This document shows positions 4,704 to 27,780 of a DNA stretch of 27,780 nucleotides, piece by piece. A program made the translations under genes and the position numbers. A model generated the notes under the pieces. That model was not told the DNA's origin. It did no database searches and was given only the letters and a program-made list of their open reading frames with translations. Position 1 is the first letter of the stretch; every line of letters starts with the position of its first letter. The stretch covers positions 1 through 27,780 of the IMG/VR virus record IMGVR_UViG_3300040971_000056. The stretch is one strand, 5' to 3'. This DNA comes from a virus (lineage: Duplodnaviria > Caudoviricetes).

Positions 4704-4733
4704 TTGACTTTGGGCCTATTTGTATGGTAAAAT
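4704..4733 (+). promoter_or_regulatory. Sigma70-type promoter for the packaging/virion operon
   Basis: TTGACT (4704-4709), N18, TAAAAT (4728-4733) with extended -10 TG at 4725-4726, about 40 nt upstream of the terS start. Confidence 0.6.
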
Positions 4734-4773
4734 AAGTGAAAGGCAAGCACTGGATTTCAACGGAGAAGGTATA

Positions 4774-5196
4774 GTGGATATAGATTGGAAACAAATAAAA
4801 GATGTGTGGGAAACCGACGCTGACAAGCTGGGCCAGTTGGCCACTAAGTTTGGTGTGTCTATGGTTGCCATATCATTAAAGGCGCGTCAATCTGAGTGGG
4901 GCGAGAAGAATTGCCGCAAGAGGATTGTGCCATCTTTTGATGTCGATATCCTCAATGATACGCAAGTGAATTTGGCTCATAAGACCGATTTGGGCAGGCT
5001 TAGACTTTTGGCTGCTTGTGTGATGGAGCATTTGCAGTTCGAGTCCAATTACATGGAAATACTCAAAGCAACTGAACGGTTAGCAAAAATTTATTCGCAA
5101 GTTATTCCCCTTGAACGTAAAGTGTTTGGTATGGATGGTGATGTCGACGACTCCCCTGATAGTATAACCCTAACCTTAGGTAAAAGAAATGGCTAA
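4774..5196 (+). CDS. terS: Terminase small subunit (putative)
   Basis: GTG 4774 after GGAGAAGG. N-terminal 'IDWKQIKDVWET...LATKFGVS...A..SEW' HTH pattern typical of TerS, upstream of TerL. Confidence 0.7.
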   Translation: MDIDWKQIKDVWETDADKLGQLATKFGVSMVAISLKARQSEWGEKNCRKRIVPSFDVDILNDTQVNLAHKTDLGRLRLLAACVMEHLQFESNYMEILKATERLAKIYSQVIPLERKVFGMDGDVDDSPDSITLTLGKRNG

Positions 5197-5421: not shown

Positions 5422-5949
5422 ATGATGTTGACACAAGAAAGATTAAAAGAATTACTTGATTACAATCCGGAAACTGGAATCTTTGTTTGGAAGATTGGTT
5501 CTACAAATGGTATGCGGGTTAAGGGTACTAAAGCAGGACATATAAAGAAAAATGGTTATGTGGAAATAAGAGTAGGTTATAAAAACTATTCAGCACACCG
5601 ACTCGCTTTCCTTTATATGGAAGGGTACCTTCCAGAGGGTCAAGTTGACCATGAGGATCGCATCAAAGATCATAATTGGTGGAACAATTTGAGGGAAGCT
5701 TCCCCGCAGTGCCAAACCAGAAATACCGGACTAAATTCTTTAAACACCTCTGGGGTAAAGGGGGTTAATTGGAATAGTTGTAGGAAAAAATGGTATGTAC
5801 AAATAAAACTAAATGGAAAACAAAAGTTTTTGGGTAGTTTTTCTGATTTTAATGAAGCGGCGGCACACAGATTTGCCATTGAACAGTGTATTGGATGGGT
5901 TAATTGTGATATAAACTCTTCAGCAGGTAGTTATTTAAAAGGTAGGTGA
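5422..5949 (+). CDS. Free-standing HNH homing endonuclease with C-terminal AP2 DNA-binding domain
   Basis: LTQERLKELLDYNPETGIF, AHRLAFLYMEG, VDHEDRIKDHNWWNNLR and NTSGVKGV..W..KKWYVQI..NGKQKFLGSF motifs. GGGAGG RBS. Confidence 0.9.
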   Translation: MMLTQERLKELLDYNPETGIFVWKIGSTNGMRVKGTKAGHIKKNGYVEIRVGYKNYSAHRLAFLYMEGYLPEGQVDHEDRIKDHNWWNNLREASPQCQTRNTGLNSLNTSGVKGVNWNSCRKKWYVQIKLNGKQKFLGSFSDFNEAAAHRFAIEQCIGWVNCDINSSAGSYLKGR

Positions 5950-5955
5950 TGTTCA

Positions 5956-7446
5956 GTGGGTGCCACCCTAAATTTTGAAACTGATCTGGCGGGATTTTCT
6001 CCTCGACAGTTAGACGCTATTGAAGCTATTGACGACGATCGTTACAAGTATATCATGTATGGTGGTGCTCTCTGACTTGGCGGTGGAAAATCGTATTTAT
6101 TGAGATGGTGTGCGGTAAGGCAGTTAATTAAGCTGTCGAAAAAGTACAATAAGACAAGGCTAGTTGGTACTATTTGTTGTGAAAATTTCCCGGCCCTGAA
6201 AGACCGCCAAGTGCAAAAGATGGCAACCGAATTTCCTGTGTGGTTGGGAAGTTCTCATAATGACCACAAAGATTACGGTAGGTGCTTCATCCTTAATAAA
6301 AAGTTCGGCGGCGGGGTAATCGCGTTACGTAACTTAGATGACCCGAGTAAGTATCAATCTGCCGAGTTTGTGTTTATATTTATCGACGAATTAACCAAGA
6401 ACGAGCTTGAAGTATTTACATTTCTTCGATCCCGTTTGCGTTGTCCGGGTATTCCAGACCACGAGCTTAAGTTTGTGGGTGCTACCAATCCGGGTGGTAT
6501 AGGACATGGTTGGTGCAAAGCTTTCTGGATTGACAGCATATTTTCGGATGACTGGAAGGGATTCGAGGGGATGTTTAAGTATATTCCCTCCAAGGCTACC
6601 GACAATCCCCACTTAGATCAAGGGTATTACGCTGTGCTTGATACCCTCCCGGAAGCATTAAGAAAGGCGTTCAGGGATGGTGATTGGAATATTTTCGTAG
6701 GCCAAGCATTTACTGAGTTCAACAAAGCGATCCACGTCATACCTGACCATATACCACCTGCTTCCGCGCCGTGCTATATGACATACGATTGGGGATTTGG
6801 AAAGCCGTTCAGTATGGGTTGGTGGTACGTAGATAATGATGGTAGAATAATTCGGTTTCATGAGTGGTATGGTTGGAATGGTACCCCGGACGAAGGTTTG
6901 AGGATGTCAGATTCCAACGTAGCTAAGGAAATTGTTAAGATAGAGAAAGAATTTAGAGTGAACGGGGTAGCCCGGCATTTTATTCGTATTGCGGGTAGTG
7001 ATATTTTTAATAAGAAGCCGGATTATAAGGGCGGGGGTCAGGGTAAATCCACTTCAGAGGTGTTCAGCCCGTACGGATTATATTTCTCCCCCGGTGATTC
7101 ACTACGTACTCTTAAGATACGTCAGTTTAGAGAAAGGCTGATGGTGCGGTCGGATGGTCGGCCAATGATGTATGTAACTGAGAGTTGCAAACAGTTTATT
7201 CGCACCATACCAAATTTAATCATGGATACCAAATCGTATGAAGATATTGATACAAGCGGGGAAGATCATTGCTACGATGAAACTTGCAATTTGTGCATGG
7301 CTCGACCGATCCTTCCCGAAAAGCCGATAAATATTGCTACGGAAATAGAAAAACGGCTGAAAGAATTAGAGGTTTCCACTACCAATCAGTATGATAGGTT
7401 TGAGGAAGAATCAAAAAATGACTTCTCAATGCTGCACCTACAATGA
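5956..7446 (+). CDS. terL: Terminase large subunit, interrupted by in-frame TGA (6073-6075) in Walker A. About 494 aa if 6 nt are bypassed.
   Basis: GTG 5956 with AGGTGAT SD. Q-motif SPRQ, YIMYGGAL*LGGGKS, Walker B FIFIDE, coupling motif GATNPGGIGHGW, nuclease YDWGF and EDHCYDET. Confidence 0.9.
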
Positions 7447-7654: not shown

Positions 7655-8122
7655 ATGAAACTTAAATGCCATATATGTAAATTTGAGATCGCCACTATTG
7701 ATGACGGGATTAAAATTCCAGTGATTGGGGCCATGTTTGGTCCTGCCGACCCCATTCATAACCATATCCCACCGTGGTCACCAGTAGTGACATGGGAGCA
7801 TATCTATTGCCCAATGTGTTCATTCCGACCATTTGAGGAGCCAACCCCCACTGGGGGAATTATTATGACCACCGATGTTGGTACCATTATGGTAACTGCT
7901 GATGGTTTTATTATGGCTAATGGTGAGGGACTTGTTTTGGTTCACGACGGTGTTGTGCTGGAAACGCCCGAGGTTGACGCTGACGAGGCTCCGGCTACTG
8001 ATACAGCCGCCGATACCGACAAGGCCAAGGACGAGCCAGCGGACGCCCTCGCTGTTGATGCTGAGCCAGTAGTCGAGCCAGCAACAGCTAAGACTAAAGT
8101 GCCTGTAAAGAAGAGTAAATAA
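7655..8122 (+). CDS. Hypothetical protein with CHIC/CPMC pairs and acidic Ala-rich disordered C-terminus
   Basis: 155-aa ORF, TAATG coupling to portal. Confidence 0.75.
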   Translation: MKLKCHICKFEIATIDDGIKIPVIGAMFGPADPIHNHIPPWSPVVTWEHIYCPMCSFRPFEEPTPTGGIIMTTDVGTIMVTADGFIMANGEGLVLVHDGVVLETPEVDADEAPATDTAADTDKAKDEPADALAVDAEPVVEPATAKTKVPVKKSK

Positions 8123-10233
8123 TGACAGTAGAATCCAAATCATCAGAATTGGTGCCAAAAAAGGGCAGCGGAATAGGAGTAGCCAAAGCAGTATTTGATA
8201 TACTCAATGCTGTGGTTACCGATAAAGAGTCCATGGGTCTTGAGGCCAAATGGTACCGATTCTATGAAATGGGCAAGAATAAACAATGGCGGAAACAGAG
8301 TGCCGACCTTACTCTTGTTTCTGCCAACTTATTATCTGTACACCGAAGAAAGACTGTAAACAGTTTAACCGACAACAATCCCACTTTTAATGTAAAAAGG
8401 GTTGTATCAACTGCCGATACTGAAGACCGATTCAAGATGGTGTTGCATTCGGTTGAACATTGGTGGGGAGAGACTGAACAGCAGGATGTACTCGAACAAT
8501 CGGTACACAACGGGGAAACTTATGGTGTGTGTATTGAAAAATCGGTGTTTGATCTTGATAAAGAGTATGGAATTGGTGAGGTGGATACGGTAATAGTAGA
8601 CCCGTACCATTTTGGTATATTCCCAGTAAAATGTCTGGATATCCAGAAGGCCGAGGCTAACGTTCATTATTATCCAATGTCAGTAAGGGATATTAAACGT
8701 AAGTGGGGCAACGCGGCTGCAGATGTAGTCGCAGATACTGATATTACATCCACCAGCGACGATAGAAGGATGGTATCAGGAGTTAAAGACACCCTTCCCA
8801 CCACTACTTCATCCAGTATTGGTGGGATGATCAAGAAACTTCTCACCACTTTGGGTGGTAATACTGGAAGTAGTGGAGAAGAGGCAATAGTAGTAGAATG
8901 TTGGGTAAAGGATTACACCCCAAATGAAACAGGAATAGGGCCACTTTATCCGGGGTTTATTAGGTGTATAACTGCTGTTAATGGTTCCATTGTTTTGGAT
9001 GACAGGGCCAATCCCAACATCAACCCCAACATTGACCAGGAGTTAGCTTCCAACACTTATTTATACGACAAATTTCCGTTCTCCAAGGCCAATTCTAATA
9101 AAGATCCCGTAAATTTTTGGGGGGAGAGTGATTTCGAACAATTGATGGGATTGCAGATGGAGTTTAATAAATCCCTCAGTCAATTCTCATCACTCAAAGA
9201 TAAAGTTGCCGGTGTAAAATTTATAAACCCCAAAACTTCCGGGGTAAATAATTCTGCTATAACTAATGGTTCATCTATAATTAATCCGGATACGATTAAT
9301 CATGGAATGTCTTATATGGAGCCTCCTCCAATTCCTAAGGAATTGATGGAGTCAGTTAATGCATATAAAGAGTTATTTTTTATTGTTGCGGGTACCTTTG
9401 ACTTAGAGAGTGCCAATACTCCCGGTGGTCAGGTAATTGCATATAAGGCTATTGCGGCCCTAATTGAGAATGCTTCTACCATGATGAAGGGTAAGATACG
9501 TAATTATGGTAAGTTGATTCGTGATCGTGGTAGAATGGCAGTATCTCAGATGCAAAATTGGTATACTGAACCCCGGTTTATTAGTTTCATCGATAATGGG
9601 GACGAAGTAGAAGGGCAAGCATTTGGACCCGATATGATTGTACCGCTGAAATTGTCGGTAGTATCCGGTTCTACTATGCCTAAATCTGAAGTACAGCGTA
9701 GGGATGAGGCTATTGGTTTATATGAAAAGGGTGCTATTGATGCCGAAGAGTTATTGAAGGCACTTAATTGGGACAAACCAACTGAAGTAGTTAACCGGAT
9801 GGCCAAGGGTCCGGTAAATCAGTTCATTGAGAAGTTGTTAAAGGCCGGTATGCCACAAGAAATGTCCCAGTATTTCTCGGATGTGGCCGCTGTCGATGAT
9901 AAACAACTTGATCGCGCTTTGGATCGTGCTGAAATGCCATTCTTTAATCAGATATTCGCATTTCAGGGTATGCAACCGGATGTTAAACAAGAAATTTCTA
10001 TTGCCAAGGCCCGTGCTGAAGTCGCAGAGAGTGATGCAAGGAAAGAGGAAGCGTTGGCAAATGTTGATGCCACTATTGCTTCTGCCAGAAAGGATATGGA
10101 GTCGATTCGTCAAACTGATGAAAGAATTAAAATTGATAAGGCCAAGGTTGTCCATGAGGCCAGAACCAAGGAGAGGGACCAGATGTTAAAAGAAAAGGAG
10201 ATAAAAAGTGCCGCTTCACAACCATCTGTGTAA
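8122..10233 (+). CDS. Portal protein
   Basis: 703 aa, downstream of TerL, helical composition with C-terminal coiled-coil barrel-like region as in P22-type portals. Confidence 0.8.
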   Translation: MTVESKSSELVPKKGSGIGVAKAVFDILNAVVTDKESMGLEAKWYRFYEMGKNKQWRKQSADLTLVSANLLSVHRRKTVNSLTDNNPTFNVKRVVSTADTEDRFKMVLHSVEHWWGETEQQDVLEQSVHNGETYGVCIEKSVFDLDKEYGIGEVDTVIVDPYHFGIFPVKCLDIQKAEANVHYYPMSVRDIKRKWGNAAADVVADTDITSTSDDRRMVSGVKDTLPTTTSSSIGGMIKKLLTTLGGNTGSSGEEAIVVECWVKDYTPNETGIGPLYPGFIRCITAVNGSIVLDDRANPNINPNIDQELASNTYLYDKFPFSKANSNKDPVNFWGESDFEQLMGLQMEFNKSLSQFSSLKDKVAGVKFINPKTSGVNNSAITNGSSIINPDTINHGMSYMEPPPIPKELMESVNAYKELFFIVAGTFDLESANTPGGQVIAYKAIAALIENASTMMKGKIRNYGKLIRDRGRMAVSQMQNWYTEPRFISFIDNGDEVEGQAFGPDMIVPLKLSVVSGSTMPKSEVQRRDEAIGLYEKGAIDAEELLKALNWDKPTEVVNRMAKGPVNQFIEKLLKAGMPQEMSQYFSDVAAVDDKQLDRALDRAEMPFFNQIFAFQGMQPDVKQEISIAKARAEVAESDARKEEALANVDATIASARKDMESIRQTDERIKIDKAKVVHEARTKERDQMLKEKEIKSAASQPSV

Positions 10234-10591
10234 ATCGTGTGGGGTCCTATTTGAGGATGTAGTAAAATGGGACGAGTATACTGTTAAATGCCCAAATTGT
10301 GGCTCGGATGCCAACAGGGTGTATACGGAATTTAATGGCATCAAGAAAGAAAACCCTTCTTGGATGTACAAAACGTTGGAAGTTGTAAATAAAGACGGTG
10401 GTAGGCACTGTCAGGAATTCCTTAAAAACCCAAATCGTGATAACTACAAAGGGTGGTTAAACGGTGAGGGGCTGAGGCCACTTGAAGAAGGGGAGTCAAT
10501 GAAAAGAAAGAAAGTTGATAACTCCGGATTAAGGGCCAAGGTTAAGGAAAAATTTTACAAGGATTCCTCGATAACAATAAAAGGGGTTTAA
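10208..10591 (+). CDS. FmdB-like zinc-ribbon protein
   Basis: MPLHNHLCKSCG..FE...CPNCGS...RV pattern. GTG start with AAGGAG RBS inside the portal 3' end. Confidence 0.75.
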   Translation: MPLHNHLCKSCGVLFEDVVKWDEYTVKCPNCGSDANRVYTEFNGIKKENPSWMYKTLEVVNKDGGRHCQEFLKNPNRDNYKGWLNGEGLRPLEEGESMKRKKVDNSGLRAKVKEKFYKDSSITIKGV

Positions 10592-10592
10592 C

Positions 10593-11417
10593 ATGAAAAA
10601 AAGAGCAATGGTATTGGCCCGATTTTTGTCCGTATTTGGTGTTGTTAATTATAACACTCCAGATCTCCCCGGTGGTTCTATGGGAGGAGGCGGCAACGAT
10701 AGTGGCGGGATGGGCGGTAGTGTGGACGATGATGCTGGTGCGGTCGGTAACTTAGACGATTCCGCATCCGGGGACGCTACTCCACCTACTGGGGATGTTA
10801 CTCCACCTACTGGGGATGTTGTCCCCACAGCTGGACCGAATTATGACGAAAGATTTACAGCATTAGACAGCAAGATTACCGACCTGTTTAGTGCAATCAA
10901 AAACACTAATAGTGACAATGATAGTTCCAGTAAGTCAGCTGGTGACTTATCTGGGCTTGAGCACGATGATTTAGTGACTATGCTAGCAGAAGATCCAGCC
11001 GGTTTCATTGGTAAGGTAACTGCGGCAGTGGAACAATCGGTAATTGCTAAAGTTTCACGGGAAAATGCTGTGAATACTTATAATAGCAAGGTTGAGGCAG
11101 TAGTTAATGATTACGCCGATAAAAACCCCGATTTCGAAAAGATGTGGGATGATGGTAAGATCCAAGGGTTCATGGAAAAGAATCCCGGACACAACGCCAT
11201 TTCTTCACACATGGTTTTAACAATGGAACAAAAGATTACAGATGCAAAAAAAGCCGGTGCAGAAGAAGCAGTACGTAACTTCCGTACCAAAACAAACAAT
11301 CAGGTACTCAATGGTGGACCTGGTATACTACCAGAGCAGCGAGACGCCGCATTAAAGAATCCGGAGAAATTCGGTGGGCGATCTGCGGTTTTGGCGGCAA
11401 GAGCAGGAATACAATAG
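10593..11417 (+). CDS. Capsid scaffolding protein (putative)
   Basis: Acidic, Gly/Asp-rich disordered N-terminus followed by a helical region, located immediately before MCP. Confidence 0.65.
   Translation: MKKRAMVLARFLSVFGVVNYNTPDLPGGSMGGGGNDSGGMGGSVDDDAGAVGNLDDSASGDATPPTGDVTPPTGDVVPTAGPNYDERFTALDSKITDLFSAIKNTNSDNDSSSKSAGDLSGLEHDDLVTMLAEDPAGFIGKVTAAVEQSVIAKVSRENAVNTYNSKVEAVVNDYADKNPDFEKMWDDGKIQGFMEKNPGHNAISSHMVLTMEQKITDAKKAGAEEAVRNFRTKTNNQVLNGGPGILPEQRDAALKNPEKFGGRSAVLAARAGIQ
10778..10819 (+). repeat. 21-bp tandem duplication encoding TPPTGDV x2
   Basis: TACTCCACCTACTGGGGATGT at 10778 and 10799. Confidence 0.9.
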
Positions 11418-11426
11418 GAGAATTAA

Positions 11427-12398
11427 ATGCCAACTTTCGAACAGTTAGAGTCAGTAACAAATGATTATTTTGTATTGGATGGCGGTAAGGCCACTGATAT
11501 TTACTTTCAATCATCTTTCCTTCTCAATTTGATGCTTAAACAGCAGAGGGGTTTGTGGAAACGTCCTACAGGTGGTATCCGTGTACGTATCCCTTTGAAG
11601 TATGACGGTGCAGAGGCCGGTTTTTACGGTCGTGGCGATACTCTGTCTAGTGACAAGCGTGAAAACGTCAACGCGGTTTATTTCAAATTGGCCCATGCCT
11701 ACGGTAATGCTACTATTCTTCGTCTGGATACTCTTGAGAACTCCGGACCCACTGCAATTGTAGATCTTGCTATTGACGAGATCGAGACTGCGCAAACTTC
11801 TCTTACTAAAGTGTTGGCCGAGTCCCTTTACGACCTTCCTTCTGGTAACGACAAACGTCTTACCGGTCTTCGGGCCATGTGTAATGAAACCGCTTCTCTG
11901 GCTTATGCCGGTATGACTGAGGATGAGTTACAGGCTGAGGATGGTACCAAACCATGGGAAGGTAAGATGATTTCCACGGTTGAGGCAATTTCTACTACCA
12001 TTATTCGTAATATGGCTACCGCCGCCAAAGTGCGTGATGGTGTTAATGGTAAGCCTGACATCGCCGTACTTCCTGAGGCCTTGTTCAACGTTCTTGTTGA
12101 TACTTTAACTATCCAGCAGCGTTTTGTGAAGTCTGAAGATACTGCCAAGGCTGGTTTTACCGGTATTGATTTCGAGGGTAAGATTCTTACTCCCGATGAT
12201 TTCTGCCCAGCTGGTCATTTATTCTTACTCAATAGTAAGCATGTGGGTTTTGCCGTTCATACCAAGGGTTTCTTTACTCGCGGCCCATGGAGAGTGGTAG
12301 AGAATAGCCCTGAGGACAAAACCATGAAGATTTATTTTGATGGTAATGTCATTTGTAACAACCGTAAAGCCCATATCGGCCATAGCAATCTTAGTTAG
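11427..12398 (+). CDS. Major capsid protein (HK97 fold)
   Basis: 323 aa after scaffold, AGGAG RBS, highly biased codons. GGIRVRIPLKY, RLTGL, KPDI, GFTGIDFEG and LFLLNSKH motifs. Confidence 0.85.
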   Translation: MPTFEQLESVTNDYFVLDGGKATDIYFQSSFLLNLMLKQQRGLWKRPTGGIRVRIPLKYDGAEAGFYGRGDTLSSDKRENVNAVYFKLAHAYGNATILRLDTLENSGPTAIVDLAIDEIETAQTSLTKVLAESLYDLPSGNDKRLTGLRAMCNETASLAYAGMTEDELQAEDGTKPWEGKMISTVEAISTTIIRNMATAAKVRDGVNGKPDIAVLPEALFNVLVDTLTIQQRFVKSEDTAKAGFTGIDFEGKILTPDDFCPAGHLFLLNSKHVGFAVHTKGFFTRGPWRVVENSPEDKTMKIYFDGNVICNNRKAHIGHSNLS

Positions 12399-12455
12399 TT
12401 TTGGCTGATATTATTTAATTATGTTTAATCAAACTCTTGTTATGGAGGAAGTATA

Positions 12456-13166
12456 ATGCGTGAAGCACCTTTAAAAACTACCGCTTACAATCAGGGTATC
12501 CTTACCACCAGCACTACTGCCAAAGAGAAACTCGGTACCCTTCGGATTCTCGAAGACGGTCGTAAGTTTCGTTATGCCAAAGCTGGTGCCGCCATTGCTG
12601 CTGGCCAAGCAGTTTCTTGTGCTCTGGTAGCTGCACAACATCTTGGTGCCATTGTGGCATCTATTAATTCTTCTGGTACGCAGGTTGCTTTAACTGTTAC
12701 CGCTGGTCTGGCTTTGGCCAATGATGCCCTTGCTGGTGCCATGTTACACGTAACGTCTGGTACTGGAGCGGGTAGATCTTACCGCGCCGAGTCCAGCACC
12801 GCCATTACTGCTGCTGGTACTTCTATTACTTTCGCACTGGTTGATCGTTTGGCCATCTACGATGGTACTACCAGAATCAGTGTTGTGCCCTCTCCTTGGA
12901 GTGGTGTATTGGTAGGTGCTGCTAATGCCGCTGCCGCTGGAGTTGCTCCAGTGGCTGTAGCTTCTGGTTCCTACTTCTGGTCACAAGTATCCGGGCCTGC
13001 CTCTGCATTGATTGTTGGTACCCCAGCTGTCGGGTCCCCGGTGATTTTAGGTGCGGCTGGTGCAGTTGCGGTTATTACTGCGGCCACTAGTCTGGCAATC
13101 GGGTACGCGTTTGGTTCGGTAGGTATTGCTGGTGAGTACAAACCGGTAATGCTCACCCTCGAATAA
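12456..13166 (+). CDS. Capsid decoration/cement-like protein (putative)
   Basis: Ala/Gly-rich, LGT...DGRKFRYAKAG and GSYFWSQVSG motifs, directly after MCP, GGAGG RBS. Confidence 0.55.
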   Translation: MREAPLKTTAYNQGILTTSTTAKEKLGTLRILEDGRKFRYAKAGAAIAAGQAVSCALVAAQHLGAIVASINSSGTQVALTVTAGLALANDALAGAMLHVTSGTGAGRSYRAESSTAITAAGTSITFALVDRLAIYDGTTRISVVPSPWSGVLVGAANAAAAGVAPVAVASGSYFWSQVSGPASALIVGTPAVGSPVILGAAGAVAVITAATSLAIGYAFGSVGIAGEYKPVMLTLE

Positions 13167-13180
13167 GGGGGGGTGATGAT

Positions 13181-13420
13181 ATGGCTTTCATTGCTACTAA
13201 AACTAAACTCGATGTAATGGGTTCCCACCGTGTTCAGATGGGAACATTTTCACAGGCCAGTGGTGATACCGGTGGTGTTGTTAACACCGGTCTTCGTGTA
13301 GTAGATAATTTCCAGATGACCTCTGCAAAGAGTGTATCTGTAAGTGGGGGCGCAGTAACTGTAGTTACTCCTGATCCCGTTGCTACTGTTGCTGGTTTCT
13401 GGATAGCTACTGGTATGTAA
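13181..13420 (+). CDS. Small virion protein (hypothetical)
   Basis: 79 aa, GGGGGGTGA RBS, beta-rich. Confidence 0.7.
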   Translation: MAFIATKTKLDVMGSHRVQMGTFSQASGDTGGVVNTGLRVVDNFQMTSAKSVSVSGGAVTVVTPDPVATVAGFWIATGM

Positions 13421-13422
13421 TT

Positions 13423-14100
13423 ATGGCAAAAATGACGGTTGATAATGTAATTGACAGAGTGTTACAGAAGATTCAGGATGATGGTATTGATTCTGATTTT
13501 ATACTGGAAGCATTTAACCAATGTAATGTCCATCTAGCTACTGTGGTTGACATTAAAGAATTAGCAACCGTCAGTGAAGTAATCTTTCTGGCAGGGGTGA
13601 ACGAGATACCCCTGCCAGATGATTTTCACAAGAATTTTACGATGGGCTACAACGATTCAGTTGATTGCAAATTGGCAGTATTTGAGAGTAGAAGGGTACT
13701 AGATTATAGAACCAGGGGTTTATCTAATTCTGGTAATGTTATTGCTGTGTGTAACGACTCTCCAAATATTTATTATAAATGTAGTCCATCTGTAGACCAA
13801 AATGGTCGCATTTATTACCATAGGTTGCCCATTGATTTGGCTGAGGGGGGTTCTTTCCCCCCATATATACCAAATGGTAGTGTGTACCGACTGTTTTTTC
13901 ATTATACAGTATCACAATGTTATGACTTTATTGAAGATGGTATTGATGGCGGTCCTGAGGACAAGAAAACCAACACAATTTACCACGATAGTAAATTCAA
14001 AGAAGCACTAAAAGAGTTTATTTCATTTGTAGGACCCGATCCTAATAACGCTTACGACTCCAGATCTAATCAAAAATTTGATTTTGACTGTTTCGAATAA
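13423..14100 (+). CDS. Head-tail adaptor / tail tubular protein A-like (putative)
   Basis: 225 aa. N-terminal helices 'VIDRVLQKIQD...ILEAFNQ' and 'IPLPDDF' typical of podovirus adaptors. Position fits. Confidence 0.55.
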   Translation: MAKMTVDNVIDRVLQKIQDDGIDSDFILEAFNQCNVHLATVVDIKELATVSEVIFLAGVNEIPLPDDFHKNFTMGYNDSVDCKLAVFESRRVLDYRTRGLSNSGNVIAVCNDSPNIYYKCSPSVDQNGRIYYHRLPIDLAEGGSFPPYIPNGSVYRLFFHYTVSQCYDFIEDGIDGGPEDKKTNTIYHDSKFKEALKEFISFVGPDPNNAYDSRSNQKFDFDCFE

Positions 14101-14101
14101 T

Positions 14102-15019
14102 ATGTTACATAATCTATTATCTAAGTGTACGGGTCTTAACAACTTAATCGACCCCACCAGATTACAACACGATCCTAATTCTGGAGTTTCCGAGTTATCA
14201 GAAGCGGTAAATGTGTATGTGGATGATTCAGGGGCGGTTTCCCGCAGACCGGGACAGTCGTTGTTATCCGCAGGTGAGTTTCATTCCTTATATTGTAATA
14301 AGGGTGATTGCTTTGTTGTTCAAGACCGTACTGATGATGCGGCTATCTATAAAGTTGGAACTGATTTTTCTTTGTCGGGAGTACGGTCGGGGCTTGTAAA
14401 GGGTGCACGAGTTTCTTACTGGCAAGAAGGTGCAAAAACCTACTACTCCAGCGAGTTTCACAATGGGGTGATTGAAAATGGGATTTCAGCATCCTGGCCT
14501 ACAAATGTACACGTGGGAGCAGACACCACTAGAGTATTTAGCGTGGCCCCTAAGGGAACTCATCTAGGGGTATTTCAAGGACGGATGTGGCTAGCTGCAG
14601 AAAATGTTATCTGGGTATCCGAACCATACGCCTTTGGAAAGTTTGATATGGCCCGATGCTTTTTCCAGTTTGGCTCTAGGGTACGGATGATAAAACCTGT
14701 ACTAACTGGCGTGTGGATCTCCACTGACGAGTATACTGGGTTCATTAAAGGCGCGGATAAATTTGAACAAATGAGCTTTGAAAAGAAATCTTCGCTTCCT
14801 GCTCATGAATATAGTGAATGTATTGAGTTATCGGAGAATGTGGCCACCCAGCTAAATTTACGGGGCCAAGTTGCTACATGGTCTAGTGACGCTGGTTTGT
14901 GTGTGGGAACGGAAGATGGTAAGTTGTTAGTTCCAACTGAGAATAAATTGTTATACCCAGCTGGTTCAATGGGGGCCACTGTAGCATTGAACAATGAAAT
15001 TATAAACGTGATATACTAA
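14102..15019 (+). CDS. Tail nozzle / beta-propeller-like virion protein (putative)
   Basis: Likely start ATG 14102, 1 nt after the adaptor stop. GLNN..DP, NVYVDDSGAVSRRPG and FQGRMWLA motifs resemble tail stabiliser N-termini. Confidence 0.5.
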   Translation: MLHNLLSKCTGLNNLIDPTRLQHDPNSGVSELSEAVNVYVDDSGAVSRRPGQSLLSAGEFHSLYCNKGDCFVVQDRTDDAAIYKVGTDFSLSGVRSGLVKGARVSYWQEGAKTYYSSEFHNGVIENGISASWPTNVHVGADTTRVFSVAPKGTHLGVFQGRMWLAAENVIWVSEPYAFGKFDMARCFFQFGSRVRMIKPVLTGVWISTDEYTGFIKGADKFEQMSFEKKSSLPAHEYSECIELSENVATQLNLRGQVATWSSDAGLCVGTEDGKLLVPTENKLLYPAGSMGATVALNNEIINVIY

Positions 15020-15031
15020 AGGGGATTAAAG

Positions 15032-15508
15032 ATGGCAGAACGATTAAGTAACGGATTCGTAAATGGTGTAAATATTACTGGCAGTGTTAAAACCTTAATG
15101 ACCAACGGTATAATTCACATATATACAGGCTCTCAACCCGTTGATGCTGACGCGGCAGAAACGGGGGATCTTATTGCTATTATAACTTTAGCTAGCGGGG
15201 CCTTTACACCAGGATCGGCAACCAATGGTATTAATCTGGCTGCAACTTCTACTGGTGGTGTTATTTCCAAGGCGTCCGGTGAAGTGTGGAGTGGCGTTGG
15301 TACCGCTCTAGCCGGTGCTGGAAAAGTGGCCGGTTGGTTTAGATGGTACGGTAATGCTAGAATTCTTGGGGCTAGTACAACAGGAGTTCGCTTAGATGGG
15401 GCTATAGGTACTACTGTTTCATATGAGCTACAATTAAGTAATACCACTATAGCTACTGGTAGCCCTGTAACAATTAGTGTATTTGATTATACAACCCCCA
15501 AAAGTTAA
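15032..15508 (+). CDS. Virion structural protein (hypothetical)
   Basis: 158 aa, Gly/Thr-rich, IHIYTGSQP..AD and AGWFR motifs. Confidence 0.7.
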   Translation: MAERLSNGFVNGVNITGSVKTLMTNGIIHIYTGSQPVDADAAETGDLIAIITLASGAFTPGSATNGINLAATSTGGVISKASGEVWSGVGTALAGAGKVAGWFRWYGNARILGASTTGVRLDGAIGTTVSYELQLSNTTIATGSPVTISVFDYTTPKS

Positions 15509-22392: not shown

Positions 22393-25300
22393 ATGGATGA
22401 TGCACAATTCGAAGAGATAATGCGCAAACGGAAACAACCCGTTCAAGCTATCTCTAATGAGAATAGTACACCCGTGTTGCCTAAGCAAATTACTGGTGGA
22501 ATGGACGATGCCGCATTTGAAAAGATTATGGCCGGTAGAAAAAGTGCTACTGGTGTTACTAGTGCTAATTCACGCCAATTGGCTATAGATAAAGCCACTA
22601 CAGAGAGTAATGTGGCTAATAGGGGTAACTTCACCCGTGGCCTTATTGGTGGCACAGATAGTACACAGGGCCTACTTTATGGTGCTGTGGGTGCTGTGGG
22701 TGACGCTGTAGGCAGTGATACGATGAGGGATTGGGGTTTTAAGGGCTACAAAAAGAATATGGCCGAAGCCGCTCTTAACCCCACCGATGTGGCTAACTTC
22801 ACCGATATACGTACCAAAGATGGTATTGCAAACACACTTAAGGATACTGGCAAGTTTATTGCCGGTTCCGCTGGTGAATTGTTACCATCAGTTGCTACTA
22901 CTATAGCTTCTTCGATTGCCGGTTCTGCTATGGGTTCTGCTGCCGCTCCCGGTGTTGGTACTGTAGGCGGCGGTATAGCTGGTGCAGTAGGCGGCGGTGC
23001 AGTAAAGGGATATTTAGCTAAGAAAGCCGAAGGTTATATGTTAACTGAGGCTATGAAGAAACTGGCTGAATCCAAAGGAAAGGATGTAGCAGAAGATTTA
23101 GCCATCAAAACTGCTTATAAATCTTTGGGGGCCAAGGCGGGGATCGTTGCTGGTACCGGGCCACTTGAAGGCGGCGGGATGTGGGGGGAAGACGCTGCTA
23201 AACATGGAGTGGAAAATGCTAACGCCGGTAGTGCCATTGCATTGGGCACGTTATCTGCTGGTACTGAGCTATTTGCTCCCGGTGGTGCTCTGGCAGAAAA
23301 ATTAGCCACTGGCGGTGCTAAAGACTTCCTGAAAGAAATGGGTAGTGCAGCGGGTAAATCCTTATGGAAGCGTTTAGGAATAGAAATACCCAAAGGAATG
23401 GCCGGGGAGTTTGTACAAGAAGCCACCCAGGAATTTATAAGTAAAGTAAATGAAAAGATTAATGATACCACAGGAACAGTAAGTTTAGCCGATAAAGAAG
23501 CAGCCATTGATTATTTAAATGCTGGTGCTAAGGGTGCTGTGGGCGGTCTTGCCTTTGGTGGTTTCAACGCAGTAACTGGAAAGGGTCCGGGCAGTATGCC
23601 CGTAACTACTGAATCTGAAATAGAAAATATCAACAAACTGAAACTGGAAACTGAAGATAATATCGCAAAAAATTATGAGATATTAAATACCGCTGAAGTT
23701 GGCAGTAAACTTCATAGTGATGCGCAAACTGCTATAGAAAATGGTACTAACAAACTGTTATTATATGATAAACAAATATATGACATCAGTAACCCCGACA
23801 TTGAGGGTGCATTTAATAAAATAGACCCGTTTGATAAATACAACGATATTATTGAAAAGTTTAATTCTGGTGCCATTACCGAGGATGATTGGAAAGCCCA
23901 CAAAACCTCTGGAAATAGTACCTTGTCTGAGGATCAAACTAGGGAAGTAGACGACCATGTAGATTTTACAAAGATGGAAAGGGGTGAGTCAATATTCACC
24001 GGGGAATATGATTCGAATCCTGGTATTGATGGTACGGTTGCCGGTACTAAGGATTTATTTACTACTCCCGAGGGTAAAAACCTTAGGAAAATTACTGATG
24101 AAGACGATGACAACACTGCAATACAGTCATTAAATGCTTATGTTAAACTTGCTAGGGGTGAAGAGAATCATACCGATTTGACGCTATCCGAGCATAAGCA
24201 TGATGAATCCGTATATGAATTAGCCAAAACTCTTGGTGTGAGGTTAGTAACATTTGATTCCGACAGCGGTATTAATGGTGCTAATGTTCCTTCTAACAAC
24301 AAGATCCTGTATATAAATTCCAAATCCGATAAACCTGCTCTGTGGGTGCTCGGTCACGAATTTGGTCATCATGTAGAGCAATCAAACCCCAAGTTGTACA
24401 AAGATTTGCTCACCTATGCCGAGGGTATGATGACTGATGAACAGTCGGCTAAACACAGAAAAAATCTGGAGGCCGCTTCTAAAGAGAATGGTGTCGGTTA
24501 CAAGCCAGAACTGGCTAATAGGGAAATGTTTAACGACTTTTGGGGCGACAGTTTCACCGATTCTGGATTTGTAGAAAAGTTGTACCAAAAGAATCCTACC
24601 AAATTTGCCAGTGTAATGCGCACTATTATGGACTATATTGATAGTGTGTTGTCCAGATTTAGAGGGGTGCAGGGCAGTAACCCCGTGTTCACTGACATGA
24701 AGAGTCTGCGAGAAAAATTGGTGAGTGGTATTAATGAACATGTAGGTTATACTGGTGCTATTCAAAGACTAAAAGATGGTAATTTTGTTAATGGCACCCC
24801 TTTAGACTTAAATGCGGACAACAAACATATCACCAATATCGCCATAGGTAAAAAGGCCAGGATGACTGTTAGGGAATCTGGTGATACTATAGAAATAAAA
24901 GAATTGGTGAGGCCGGATATAGCAAAGGCTAATGGTGATGGGGTTCAACTTGAACAAACTACAAAAGAAAGATCCGGTAAACCATTCCCAGACAAGAAAA
25001 CACCTACGGACGCACTAGATGAATTAAAAGCGTACGCACAAGAAAATGGTAAACAGTTGATTTCTTATGGTGGACCAAACAATATATACGCCATACGCCA
25101 AGGGTTTAAGTGGGTTGGTAATAGGGTAGTAGATGGTAAAAAGATAAATTCCGGGTGGGTGTGGGATTCTAAAAATCAATTGCCTTCCAAGGGCAAGGGC
25201 GGCGTTGTCGAGTCTCAGGCTACTGATGGCCGCGATGCAGCCTCCAAGACCGAGGAAAGGGCCACGATGACCCGCGCTGAGGCTATCGATGCCGAGATCG

Positions 25301-27780
25301 AAGACCTCAACGCTGAAATGGCGGAAGCCAGTATTAAGTTTAATAAGTCTGACACTGCGGCACGTAACAACCCCGGACCCGATCGGTCTACCCGTGTTAA
25401 TAACATTAGAACCGAGTATGAGTCAATTATAAGTAAGAAAGATAAGAAAATAAAAGCATTAATTAAGGAAAAATCAGACATACAAATACCAAAAGAAGAA
25501 AAAGTAAAACAGCCACTTACGGAAAAAGAAGAAGGGGATGTAAAATTACGCAAAGAAAGGGACAAACAAAATAGGGAACGTTTAGGTAAAGAAGTAAAAG
25601 GACAAGAGTTGCCCCCGGATAAACAAATTGACCCCAACAAATGGCGTGGCCAGAGTCCTATTAACCCACGGAATGTAACTCCATTTAACCAAGTGGCAGA
25701 GATTTCTGACGAAATTGATAAAAAACATTTAACCCCAGCACAACGGGAACAAGAAAGACTAGCTAACGAGTTAAAGGTGAAGCAAGAGGAACGCGACAGA
25801 AAGAGCAAAAATGCCGATGCCGTAACTTGGAAGTTATATCAGTCGTTGTTAAGATGGGCAAAAGTTTTAGATCAAATGGATAAAGAGGCAAAATTTTCGG
25901 AAACCCAAGAACAGGAGTTGATCAACAGGGGTTACTTTTTGGAATCCGATGGTGCTGTATCTACTGACCGTGCTATGAATTTAGCTAAAGGGGTTGTCAA
26001 TCTTAAATCGGCTATTACCATCAATAATAGAACAATAAAGAAACTAAACAAAGACAAGAACACCGGTACCAAAAAAGTAAATGGCGTAAATGTAAGTGAC
26101 AAAATTAATTCATTGGTACAAATTAATAAGTCACTTGAAGTTGACTTGGTAAAGTTATCAGAAGAGTACAGCTTGTTGGAAACTACCGGGGACACCCATG
26201 TTGGCGTTAATCAAAAAATTGTACTTGAAATATTAAAAAATGAAGAGAACAAAAAGAGCCAAAAGCAAGCCGAGGATGTATTAAAAGAAAAAGAACAGAG
26301 GAGAGCCAACGCTTTAGAGGGTATAGCTTTAAGGAATTTAAAAGAAGTAAAAGAGGATAAGAGTCAACACGAAAAAGATTACATGGGTGCTGAAGTCACT
26401 GATGTAGAGAGTAAACTGTATAATATAATAAGTGTTGAAAGCGGTAGCAAAAAAATAGTGGGGATACCCAGTATCAGTAGGGGTGGCGTACGTTTACAAT
26501 TTGGTGAGGGAACTACAAAAAACCAAATTGTAGATTCCGTGCGTGATATGGCCAACAAATTCATTAGTAAAAATTCAAATCGAATTAACCCCAGTATTAT
26601 AGGTAGAATATCCAATTTATTTTATAACAACGTAATTGGTAATACCCAAATCGAAAAAATGGTATTCGATAGGTTTATTAAATTAATGAGGGAGTATACC
26701 TTTAAACATAACATTAAACCGGGGTTGGAGTATAATATTGGCACGGTAAAATATGTTAAGGCTCGTGAAGAGGTCATGTCCGAAATCAAGGATAGGATAT
26801 CTAGAGTAGTACAAACTGCAGATGATATGTTCAGGGACGAAAGTGTTAAACCATTAGTGTACTCTGGGCCTACCAAAAATACTACAGAAAAAATAAACGC
26901 TGTATATGATACAGCTATAGCTGCGGGGGAAGAGGTAGTATCTAAATTAGGAAAGGCTAACACCAAAGCAATGAAAACTGAGCACCAAAGGGCTAAAAGT
27001 CGTGCTACGTTTGAGTCATTTATACGCAATAGTTTCATGGAGGGTTTGAATGTTAATGAAGTGGGTTATGTAGAAACACAAAGAAAATTATTTAACGAAA
27101 TGGCTGGCAGCGTTAACATTAGAAGGTTAGCAGTAGCCGCCATGTATAACGATGCTACTGCTAGTGTAGTTGCATATGAGGGCGACGATGAAATAAAAGT
27201 AAAAAAGGGTCTGATTGGGGATGGTAACACCGATGTAGAAATGGAACCGGAAGTAGAGCGCGGTATTGATTTGGATAACCTGCTTAAAAATCCCGATGGT
27301 AGTTATATTGTTGGAGTGGACGATGACGTTAACTTCAGTGTGTCTATTCAGAATCCAGATGCTGCCGGTGCCAAAGTAACTGATGAAGAAACAAGGGATC
27401 CTAATCCAGCCATACAAAAACTTGTAGACGATAATAGGGATGTACCAAGTTTATCATGGTATACCAAACAAAAGCACAAAGTAGAAGCATTTGCACAGTC
27501 ATTTAGTACTCATGTTATTGGGTACGGCCCCGGTAAATCCGGCCAGTTTAAGGATATACTTAGGAGGATGGGTGCAGTGGATAAATTTGCCGCCAGAGAG
27601 GCTTTTGCTAGGATATACAGAGTAGTCGGTAAATTGGATACCAATGAGAATCGTGTGTTTACTCAAATATTAATGATTCATAATATACTAAACGGAACAG
27701 TACCCAATTTGGATGGCGTGGCTCGTATATATGATGGTAAACTCCCTTTTTATGGTACCATAGAAAATGCTCGTAAGAGT
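22393..27780 (+). CDS. Very large ejection / polyvalent-type protein (>1796 aa, 3'-truncated) with zincin HExxH domain
   Basis: ATG 22393. No + strand ORF ends here in the track, consistent with an open frame to the window end. Gly/Ala-rich hydrophobic N-terminal region, LGHEFGHH at 24349-24372. Confidence 0.8.
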   Translation, partial: MDDAQFEEIMRKRKQPVQAISNENSTPVLPKQITGGMDDAAFEKIMAGRKSATGVTSANSRQLAIDKATTESNVANRGNFTRGLIGGTDSTQGLLYGAVGAVGDAVGSDTMRDWGFKGYKKNMAEAALNPTDVANFTDIRTKDGIANTLKDTGKFIAGSAGELLPSVATTIASSIAGSAMGSAAAPGVGTVGGGIAGAVGGGAVKGYLAKKAEGYMLTEAMKKLAESKGKDVAEDLAIKTAYKSLGAKAGIVAGTGPLEGGGMWGEDAAKHGVENANAGSAIALGTLSAGTELFAPGGALAEKLATGGAKDFLKEMGSAAGKSLWKRLGIEIPKGMAGEFVQEATQEFISKVNEKINDTTGTVSLADKEAAIDYLNAGAKGAVGGLAFGGFNAVTGKGPGSMPVTTESEIENINKLKLETEDNIAKNYEILNTAEVGSKLHSDAQTAIENGTNKLLLYDKQIYDISNPDIEGAFNKIDPFDKYNDIIEKFNSGAITEDDWKAHKTSGNSTLSEDQTREVDDHVDFTKMERGESIFTGEYDSNPGIDGTVAGTKDLFTTPEGKNLRKITDEDDDNTAIQSLNAYVKLARGEENHTDLTLSEHKHDESVYELAKTLGVRLVTFDSDSGINGANVPSNNKILYINSKSDKPALWVLGHEFGHHVEQSNPKLYKDLLTYAEGMMTDEQSAKHRKNLEAASKENGVGYKPELANREMFNDFWGDSFTDSGFVEKLYQKNPTKFASVMRTIMDYIDSVLSRFRGVQGSNPVFTDMKSLREKLVSGINEHVGYTGAIQRLKDGNFVNGTPLDLNADNKHITNIAIGKKARMTVRESGDTIEIKELVRPDIAKANGDGVQLEQTTKERSGKPFPDKKTPTDALDELKAYAQENGKQLISYGGPNNIYAIRQGFKWVGNRVVDGKKINSGWVWDSKNQLPSKGKGGVVESQATDGRDAASKTEERATMTRAEAIDAEIEDLNAEMAEASIKFNKSDTAARNNPGPDRSTRVNNIRTEYESIISKKDKKIKALIKEKSDIQIPKEEKVKQPLTEKEEGDVKLRKERDKQNRERLGKEVKGQELPPDKQIDPNKWRGQSPINPRNVTPFNQVAEISDEIDKKHLTPAQREQERLANELKVKQEERDRKSKNADAVTWKLYQSLLRWAKVLDQMDKEAKFSETQEQELINRGYFLESDGAVSTDRAMNLAKGVVNLKSAITINNRTIKKLNKDKNTGTKKVNGVNVSDKINSLVQINKSLEVDLVKLSEEYSLLETTGDTHVGVNQKIVLEILKNEENKKSQKQAEDVLKEKEQRRANALEGIALRNLKEVKEDKSQHEKDYMGAEVTDVESKLYNIISVESGSKKIVGIPSISRGGVRLQFGEGTTKNQIVDSVRDMANKFISKNSNRINPSIIGRISNLFYNNVIGNTQIEKMVFDRFIKLMREYTFKHNIKPGLEYNIGTVKYVKAREEVMSEIKDRISRVVQTADDMFRDESVKPLVYSGPTKNTTEKINAVYDTAIAAGEEVVSKLGKANTKAMKTEHQRAKSRATFESFIRNSFMEGLNVNEVGYVETQRKLFNEMAGSVNIRRLAVAAMYNDATASVVAYEGDDEIKVKKGLIGDGNTDVEMEPEVERGIDLDNLLKNPDGSYIVGVDDDVNFSVSIQNPDAAGAKVTDEETRDPNPAIQKLVDDNRDVPSLSWYTKQKHKVEAFAQSFSTHVIGYGPGKSGQFKDILRRMGAVDKFAAREAFARIYRVVGKLDTNENRVFTQILMIHNILNGTVPNLDGVARIYDGKLPFYGTIENARKS

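Follow-up and report, generated by a model that had tools for sequence, protein, structure and literature searches.

A candidate in-frame stop-hop in the Walker A motif of a phage large terminase gene

Natural bypassing has so far been described for T4 gene 60 and its homologues, for the byps of yeast mitochondria and for three Streptomyces terminases; the cases given in the available text of a recent preprint are T4 gene 60, a single phage terminase and Magnusiomyces (bioRxiv 10.1101/2024.12.09.627546). In the available portions of the gene 60 literature, a topoisomerase gene carries a 50-nt gap, always accompanied by the MobA element, that is crossed at about 50% efficiency with a take-off stem-loop, a mini-SD and a nascent-peptide signal. 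There a take-off codon, a stop and a matched landing codon lie next to an HNH gene, MobA (bioRxiv 10.1101/2022.08.31.505936; PMC5009743), the insert blocks self-cleavage, the nuclease decays first with the gap persisting, and signs of lateral exchange are seen (Manning and Atkins, bioRxiv 10.1101/2022.08.31.505936). As far as its available text goes, the latter preprint deals with the topoisomerase only and the word terminase is absent. The Magnusiomyces mitochondrial byps are many short inserts between matched or near-matched codons, described in the accessible sections as relying on unused codons and not on stops, on relaxed mitochondrial ribosomes, and as spread over many genes and not over one motif (PMC5009743).

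The bypass of phiHau3, prophage StrepC.1 and S. catenulae (PMC10732093; Smith 2013 as cited there) likewise concerns the large terminase, with short gaps and a conserved junction. It is set off by a hungry UUA codon that is linked to the development of the host, and a stem-loop and SD signals have been proposed for it. According to the accessible part of this study, 3 out of 100 terminase genes of Streptomyces have UUA-led gaps, of 7 and 10 nt, and mass spectrometry found the bypass junction peptide in E. coli for the phiHau3 g6/g7 site in a variant with UAA (PMC10732093). Synthetic E. coli stop-hops, with matched codons around an in-frame stop, are, in the available text, laboratory constructs working at a low level, in which 9 nt yield one amino acid (PMC5009743; bioRxiv 10.1101/2024.12.09.627546). 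A 2016 review states, in its accessible portion, that no occurrences of natural in-frame stop-hopping were known (PMC5009743), and our own literature search, outside which most subscription papers lay, found no paper on stop-led gaps in the TerL Walker A motif.

We analysed a linear phage record of 27,780 nt (CheckV completeness 46%), the whole of which is called the window. It contains terS, an HNH gene, terL, the genes for the portal and the major head protein, and other virion genes; terS, the HNH gene, terL and the head module lie on the plus strand. The terL gene opens at 5944–5958 with a Shine-Dalgarno-like AGGTGA (5944–5949, 7 nt upstream) and a GTG start at 5956, the position at which intact homologues also begin; in relatives the start context is AGGAGG plus GTG (L001) or GTG in nearly the same surroundings (L006). 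The first open reading frame (ORF1, 5956–6075) comprises 39 codons, with the RQ motif, a helix, strand 1 and YGGAL, followed by TGA. Its amino acid identity to six relatives is 64–76% over 33–34 codons, with L004 (56%) as the exception, and in the predicted structure the strand that leads into the P-loop is made up of residues 32–37. Positions 6058–6093 read TAT GGT GGT GCT CTC TGA CTT GGC GGT GGA AAA TCG, or YGGAL-stop-LGGGKS, with 6 extra nt in the codons of the Walker A motif (P-loop). These are the codon CTC (Leu 39, 6070–6072), which would serve for take-off, the TGA stop as the opening codon of the 6-nt coding gap (6073–6075), and the putative landing codon CTT (6076–6078), which lies at +6, has no other CTY codon beside it in the 60 nt downstream and opens a frame of 455 codons. 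This second frame (ORF2, 6079–7446, stop at 7444–7446; PHROG terL, E 4e-12) extends from GGGKS to the C-terminus and is shared with GTG 5956. The structure predicted for the terL product matched large terminases in a PDB fold search, with D6E as the best match (E 1.4e-19) and those of Sf6, HK97 and T4 among the others; PDB sequence searches returned no terminase match. The window's own database TerL protein begins 87 residues late. The nearest terL (81% identity in 320 aa) comes from a Thiomargarita bin, where it is on a contig of 1.6 kb, which is weak host evidence, and named homologues at 57–58% come from Oceanidesulfovibrio, Desulfovibrio and Syntrophaceae. At its far end (22393–27780) the window has an open frame of 1,796 aa, a fragment of a giant protein of virion type that shows a metalloprotease-like match (phrog_87); in the relative G001 this protein is 2,968 aa long.

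A previous sequence-only reading of this DNA had placed the interrupted motif in frame with terL, had taken GTG 5956 with its Shine-Dalgarno sequence as the true start and had stated that the other two frames close within about 20 codons and that a restart at TTG 6100 loses Walker A. We found each of these points as described: past the site the +1 and −1 frames stay open for 10 and 19 codons, respectively, and the product of TTG 6100, the first in-frame restart, omits GGGKSY and all that precedes it. The same observations bear on the possibility that the gene is split, so that a 39-aa peptide and a re-initiated C-terminal protein would assemble into the ATPase. Endonuclease-linked split genes that reassemble are known, and T4 topoisomerase and nrdA are given as such in the available text of Manning and Atkins (bioRxiv 10.1101/2022.08.31.505936). 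We nevertheless hold this extremely unlikely, as the break falls inside the P-loop, the first in-frame restart loses GGGKSY, neither terminal extensions nor intein halves were found, and the matched landing codons would be left unexplained. An intein or self-splicing intron at the window site was rejected as well, the insert being 6 nt only.

The sequence-only reading had also proposed a return to the raw data at 6070–6078. A Logan contig from a separate assembly covers 5555–6168 with no mismatches and no gaps and keeps the 6 nt. The four Logan runs come from one sample of one study at a depth of about 3, and this may be the source sample, which makes the contig an assembly check and not an independent occurrence; no RNA dataset is listed among those containing the sequence. 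The independent occurrence of the gap comes from L001, with 74% amino acid identity and the sequence CTT-TGA-CTT, the recurrence exceeds chance by far, and an assembly error is unlikely.

Judged on its sequence, the window contains a real 6-nt coding gap that is most probably bypassed by ribosome hopping, with 9 nt giving one Leu. Translation would begin at GTG 5956, and peptidyl-tRNA-Leu(GAG) would sit on CUC while UGA awaits RF2. In some ribosomes the tRNA would detach, the mRNA would slide by 6 nt and the tRNA would re-pair on CUU; tRNA-Leu(GAG) reads both CUC and CUU. Decoding would restart at GGC, yielding a TerL of 494 aa in which the YGGALGGGKS loop is normal, and the remaining ribosomes would release the 39-aa peptide. 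Two features of known bypassing are present at the site, namely matched CTC/CTT codons for take-off and landing and a stop immediately after take-off; in the clade and in the wider family, the reading frame with the gap taken out encodes a conserved protein that is subject to purifying selection. P-site re-pairing is stated to tolerate wobble in the accessible text of Manning and Atkins (bioRxiv 10.1101/2022.08.31.505936).

The window gap works like the bypassing of T4 gene 60 and phiHau3 and is a member of neither family. We read the phiHau3 g6/g7 break, between LKGWG and KD, as falling in a Walker A loop too, but the window has a true stop, an in-frame gap, no structure, another terminase family and an adjoining HNH gene. 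With T4 gene 60 it shares the order of take-off codon, stop and matched landing codon next to an HNH gene, whereas the affected gene is terL, the gap is 6 nt long, no signals were found, the nuclease is of the HNH-AP2 type and one nuclease-bearing relative is ungapped. Its geometry is that of the synthetic stop-hops, and on sequence grounds the window is a candidate for a natural in-frame stop-hop in an essential gene.

Homology searches yielded the clade of the window, with at least 10 loci and a support of 100/100. Four of the 10 loci listed are gapped and six have plain GGALGGGKS. The gaps are CTC TGA CTT in the window and CTT TGA CTT in L001 (6 nt each), CTC TGA C CTT in L005 (7 nt) and CTC TGA AAAA CTT in L006 (10 nt), so that the take-off codon is CTC or CTT and the landing codon CTT in all four; L339 and L341 do not differ from L001 in 1,480 nt and add no independent case. 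The relatives, which the sequence-only reading had singled out as a check, thus have either the plain motif or a stop between matched Leu codons. Among the best 120 of 340 protein matches, 112 have the 10-residue motif and none has a longer one. The 8 without a readable motif are four known gapped genes or near copies, P0011, whose sequence suggests a fifth gap, 7 nt long (protein only), the N-terminally truncated P0013 and P0014, and P0067 with a variant motif.

These alleles speak to stop-codon readthrough, in which UGA would be decoded as Trp, Cys or Sec and a P-loop two residues longer (L-X-L) would be functional enough. The gap of the window keeps the frame, the stop context UGA-C is leaky, and a model with Trp folds with a mean pLDDT of 89.8, with a dip to 84–85 over residues 31–50 versus 94–98 on the flanks that favours neither side. 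Yet readthrough cannot cross the 7- and 10-nt sister gaps at the same codon, and as these are out of frame, simple readthrough is excluded for the family. Sense-only inserts or longer motifs are absent among the matches listed. The 20 window genes end in TAA (16), TGA (2) or TAG (2), and with two genes ending in TGA and no stops inside the shared genes, TGA is not reassigned; the window contains no tRNA gene (a suppressor, for example). For the window itself we therefore consider readthrough very unlikely. Hopping is favoured because skipping alone restores the frame for alleles of 5, 6, 7 and 10 nt and keeps the loop length.

Within the clade, silent sites are saturated (pS 0.76–0.94 in the 3' part) at protein identities of 64–83%, and conservation is equal for gapped and intact terL genes. 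Gapped genes have intact sisters, in the pairs window/L407 (85/92), L001/L003 (100/100) and L005/L276 (100/100), indicating that the gap was gained or lost repeatedly. The gapped genes are not one group in the tree, and a clustering of gapped alleles in the 5' tree is unsupported. Between L005 and L276, identity is 67–79% in the first 600 aligned nt and 90–100% in the remainder, a break which indicates that the 5' part, including Walker A, was exchanged. The window, L005 and L006 have the same 15 nt up to the stop (6061–6075) despite the saturated silent sites elsewhere, which may reflect a short transferred tract or selection on the RNA. In the same TerL family, L350 (1270–1300) has a gap of its own where the last Gly of the loop is encoded, GGC TGA GGC, 6 nt long and in frame. 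Homology alone also retrieved L384 (about 318–345), with TCT TGA GAA TCT as a 9-nt in-frame gap, and L042 (about 325–345), with a 4-nt stop-led insert lacking a matched landing codon; in L415, from a Rikenellaceae genome bin, a terL with a 5-nt stop-led gap lies on a 42-kb genome contig.

Upstream of terL, the terminase small subunit gene (terS, 4720–5196; PHROG 1206 terS, E 2.5e-6) is syntenic in all clade loci having upstream DNA. Between terS and terL lies a free-standing HNH_3 + AP2 endonuclease gene (5422–5949; Pfam HNH_3 E 4.6e-9, AP2 weak; phrog_99 E 3.8e-62). Remnants of it are found in gapped loci, as a C-terminal part in L001 (58% over 71 aa) and an internally deleted copy in L006; L005 comes without upstream DNA. 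Among intact clade loci the gene is absent from L002, L003, L004, L279 and L407 and whole in L276. Thus, 3 of 3 gapped versus 1 of 6 intact clade loci have the HNH gene or a remnant. More widely, we tallied HNH or GIY-YIG Pfam matches in the two nearest upstream ORFs and found them in 17 of the 36 loci with a gap and in 1 of the 46 intact ones (Fisher p 7e-7, a value that carries no correction for phylogeny and is overstated because the intact set is the window's TerL family and the gapped set comes from many families). Loci with less than 900 nt of flank were left out (15 of 51 gapped, 12 of 57 intact), and L276 was added by hand to the intact set after clustering had removed it.

From this comparison, shielding from a homing endonuclease appears a fairly likely origin of the gap. 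The gap would destroy the site recognised by the HNH-AP2 homing endonuclease encoded next to it, would travel with the nuclease gene, like the gap of T4 gene 60 with mobA, and would then outlive it. L276, with an intact HNH gene and an intact Walker A motif, shows that not every nuclease-bearing allele is gapped and that a locus can have the nuclease without the gap.

We then turned to viral contigs at large, which were scanned with two patterns holding YGGA and GGGK[ST] fixed with 4–33 nt free between them. The scan returned at least 216 loci, of which at least 178 were TerL-like by a profile of our own and formed 45 clusters at 80% identity; with L100, L105 and L153, evident TerLs below the profile cut, the number rose to 48 clusters, which are not fully independent lineages. 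The stop directly follows the take-off codon in 43 of the 48 clusters listed (null mean 6.8, maximum 16, 2000 trials), and in these the take-off codon sits at Ala3, X4 or Gly5 of the motif. A matched landing codon is present in 36 of the 48 clusters listed, identical in 11 and synonymous in 25 (null mean 0.46, maximum 3; with the stop kept, mean 4.6, maximum 13), and is mismatched in 7 of the 43 stop-led clusters (GCN to GTN, ACA or TCC). The remaining 5 of the 48 are two in the wrong register (L130 and L194) and one A-run (L203, with a stop-led cluster mate), all three pattern false positives that were kept in the count, together with one in which the stop comes one codon later and one TTA-led gap. 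Distinct stop-led inserts listed are 5 nt (28), 6 nt (11), 7 nt (4), 8 nt (3) and 10 nt (2) long, with one each of 9, 11, 17, 19 and 26 nt, and no sense-only in-frame insert occurs among the at least 178 TerL-like loci listed. An origin by duplication would itself make matched codons, yet would not put the stop first.

The position of the stop also matters for a removal of the gap before translation, be it by RNA excision and ligation (a micro-intron), by polymerase skipping or by a low-frequency DNA deletion between CT repeats. The matched codons do double as short direct repeats. On the other hand, neither structure nor a common splice motif was seen, a stop placed first in the gap (43 of 48 lineages listed) fits a ribosomal trigger and not splicing, and no joint skipping the gap is listed among the assembled contigs, which are of low depth. 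We know of no bacterial introns of 5–10 nt, and removal before translation seems to us improbable.

Several loci differ from this common pattern. In L148 (301–336) a 7-nt gap between matched Ala codons is led by TTA instead of a stop and resembles the phiHau3 UUA type. L076 (minus strand, 2001–2055) has a 26-nt gap with an exact GGT match and an inverted repeat directly at take-off, and resembles a small T4 gene 60 cassette. Of the loci fetched, at least 93 (the L077/L096 cluster) are one phage group; all have a 5-nt gap and the group shows purifying selection, and the one member scanned for upstream genes has an HNH/NUMOD4 gene there. In L022, L028, L052, L293, L294, L349 and L352, intein-like C-termini (ending HN) adjoin the Ser of GKS, and the Walker A motif is thus also an intein site, between GK and S, in the window's TerL family. 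No cultured phage with such a gap was found among the best matches inspected. Erwinia phage SOI901, considered as a split terL, is not split, and the two-piece matches of the cultured phages EC6 and BSwM KMM2 are not gapped and instead result from a 1-nt loss late in terL; the same loss lies in the same terL A-run of both (L418 and L419, about 1833) and may be a homopolymer error or a −1 slip.

The terL gap is not a product of decay. Downstream of the gap, median dN/dS is 0.00–0.09 in the 8 clusters with usable gap-sharing pairs (dS up to 2.2), and in the largest of these, with 40 distinct genes and 775 of 780 pairs used, it is 0.046. Selection on the exact allele of the window is inferred from relatives. 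The head module of the window (8122–15508; portal, major head protein, adaptor, closure and others, by PHROG and Pfam matches) is intact, and the shared structural genes align full-length and free of stops to G001 and G003. These results also bear on a dead or helper-dependent gene, in which case the phage would be defective or borrow TerL from a co-infecting phage. With a contig 46% complete a second terL is possible, and with gapped genes beside intact sisters on the tree the allele could be young. Against this stand dN/dS values below 0.1 in gap-sharing lineages, intact virion genes, the same architecture in dozens of lineages and a single terL match in the record, and we judge a dead or borrowed gene highly improbable. 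In agreement with this, the sequence-only reading had held that the rest of terL and the virion module are intact and that a stop confined to one decaying genome would speak for a defective prophage: no other lesion was seen in the structural genes common to the two relatives, and the gap recurs in relatives with low dN/dS where it is shared. Its stop-hop interpretation is supported, and the HNH link and the breadth of the family go beyond it. Altogether, the gap architecture is real and recurrent, and the gene is under selection.

As for recoding signals, no stimulatory hairpin was detected at the site (z 0.62; six folds gave z −1.35 to 0.68 against shuffles). An internal Shine-Dalgarno push was assessed with the geometry of the RF2 frameshift site as the model; the window duplex has −8.6 kcal/mol, and the 51 gapped and 57 intact genes are alike (p 0.24). 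Neither a hairpin nor stronger anti-SD pairing was thus found that could lift the hop above synthetic stop-hops with their low level, and its efficiency may be low. The packaging motor needs just a few TerL molecules, so a low yield would probably be enough. More tentatively, and with considerable doubt, the terminase P-loop could be a pan-phage hot spot for signal-free hops of 5–10 nt, born as endonuclease shields and kept as a dimmer of TerL synthesis. Such a dimmer would be set by release-factor or tRNA supply and could keep TerL below terminase-sensing defences such as Avs, for example; the PDB entry of Avs3 bound to a terminase is among the fold-search matches, from which we infer a possible link of Avs to the gap. 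If this were true, the window would be a natural, essential, in-frame stop-hop.

An essential motor protein thus seems to depend on an in-frame stop-hop, and dozens of phage lineages have the same arrangement with gaps of 5 to 26 nt. This natural gap series is material for testing the minimal rules of hopping, and the gap family lets one test whether homing endonucleases breed recoding sites. Besides, gene callers truncate gapped terL genes, with consequences for the annotation of phages, for the calling of defective prophages and for phylogenies built on TerL.
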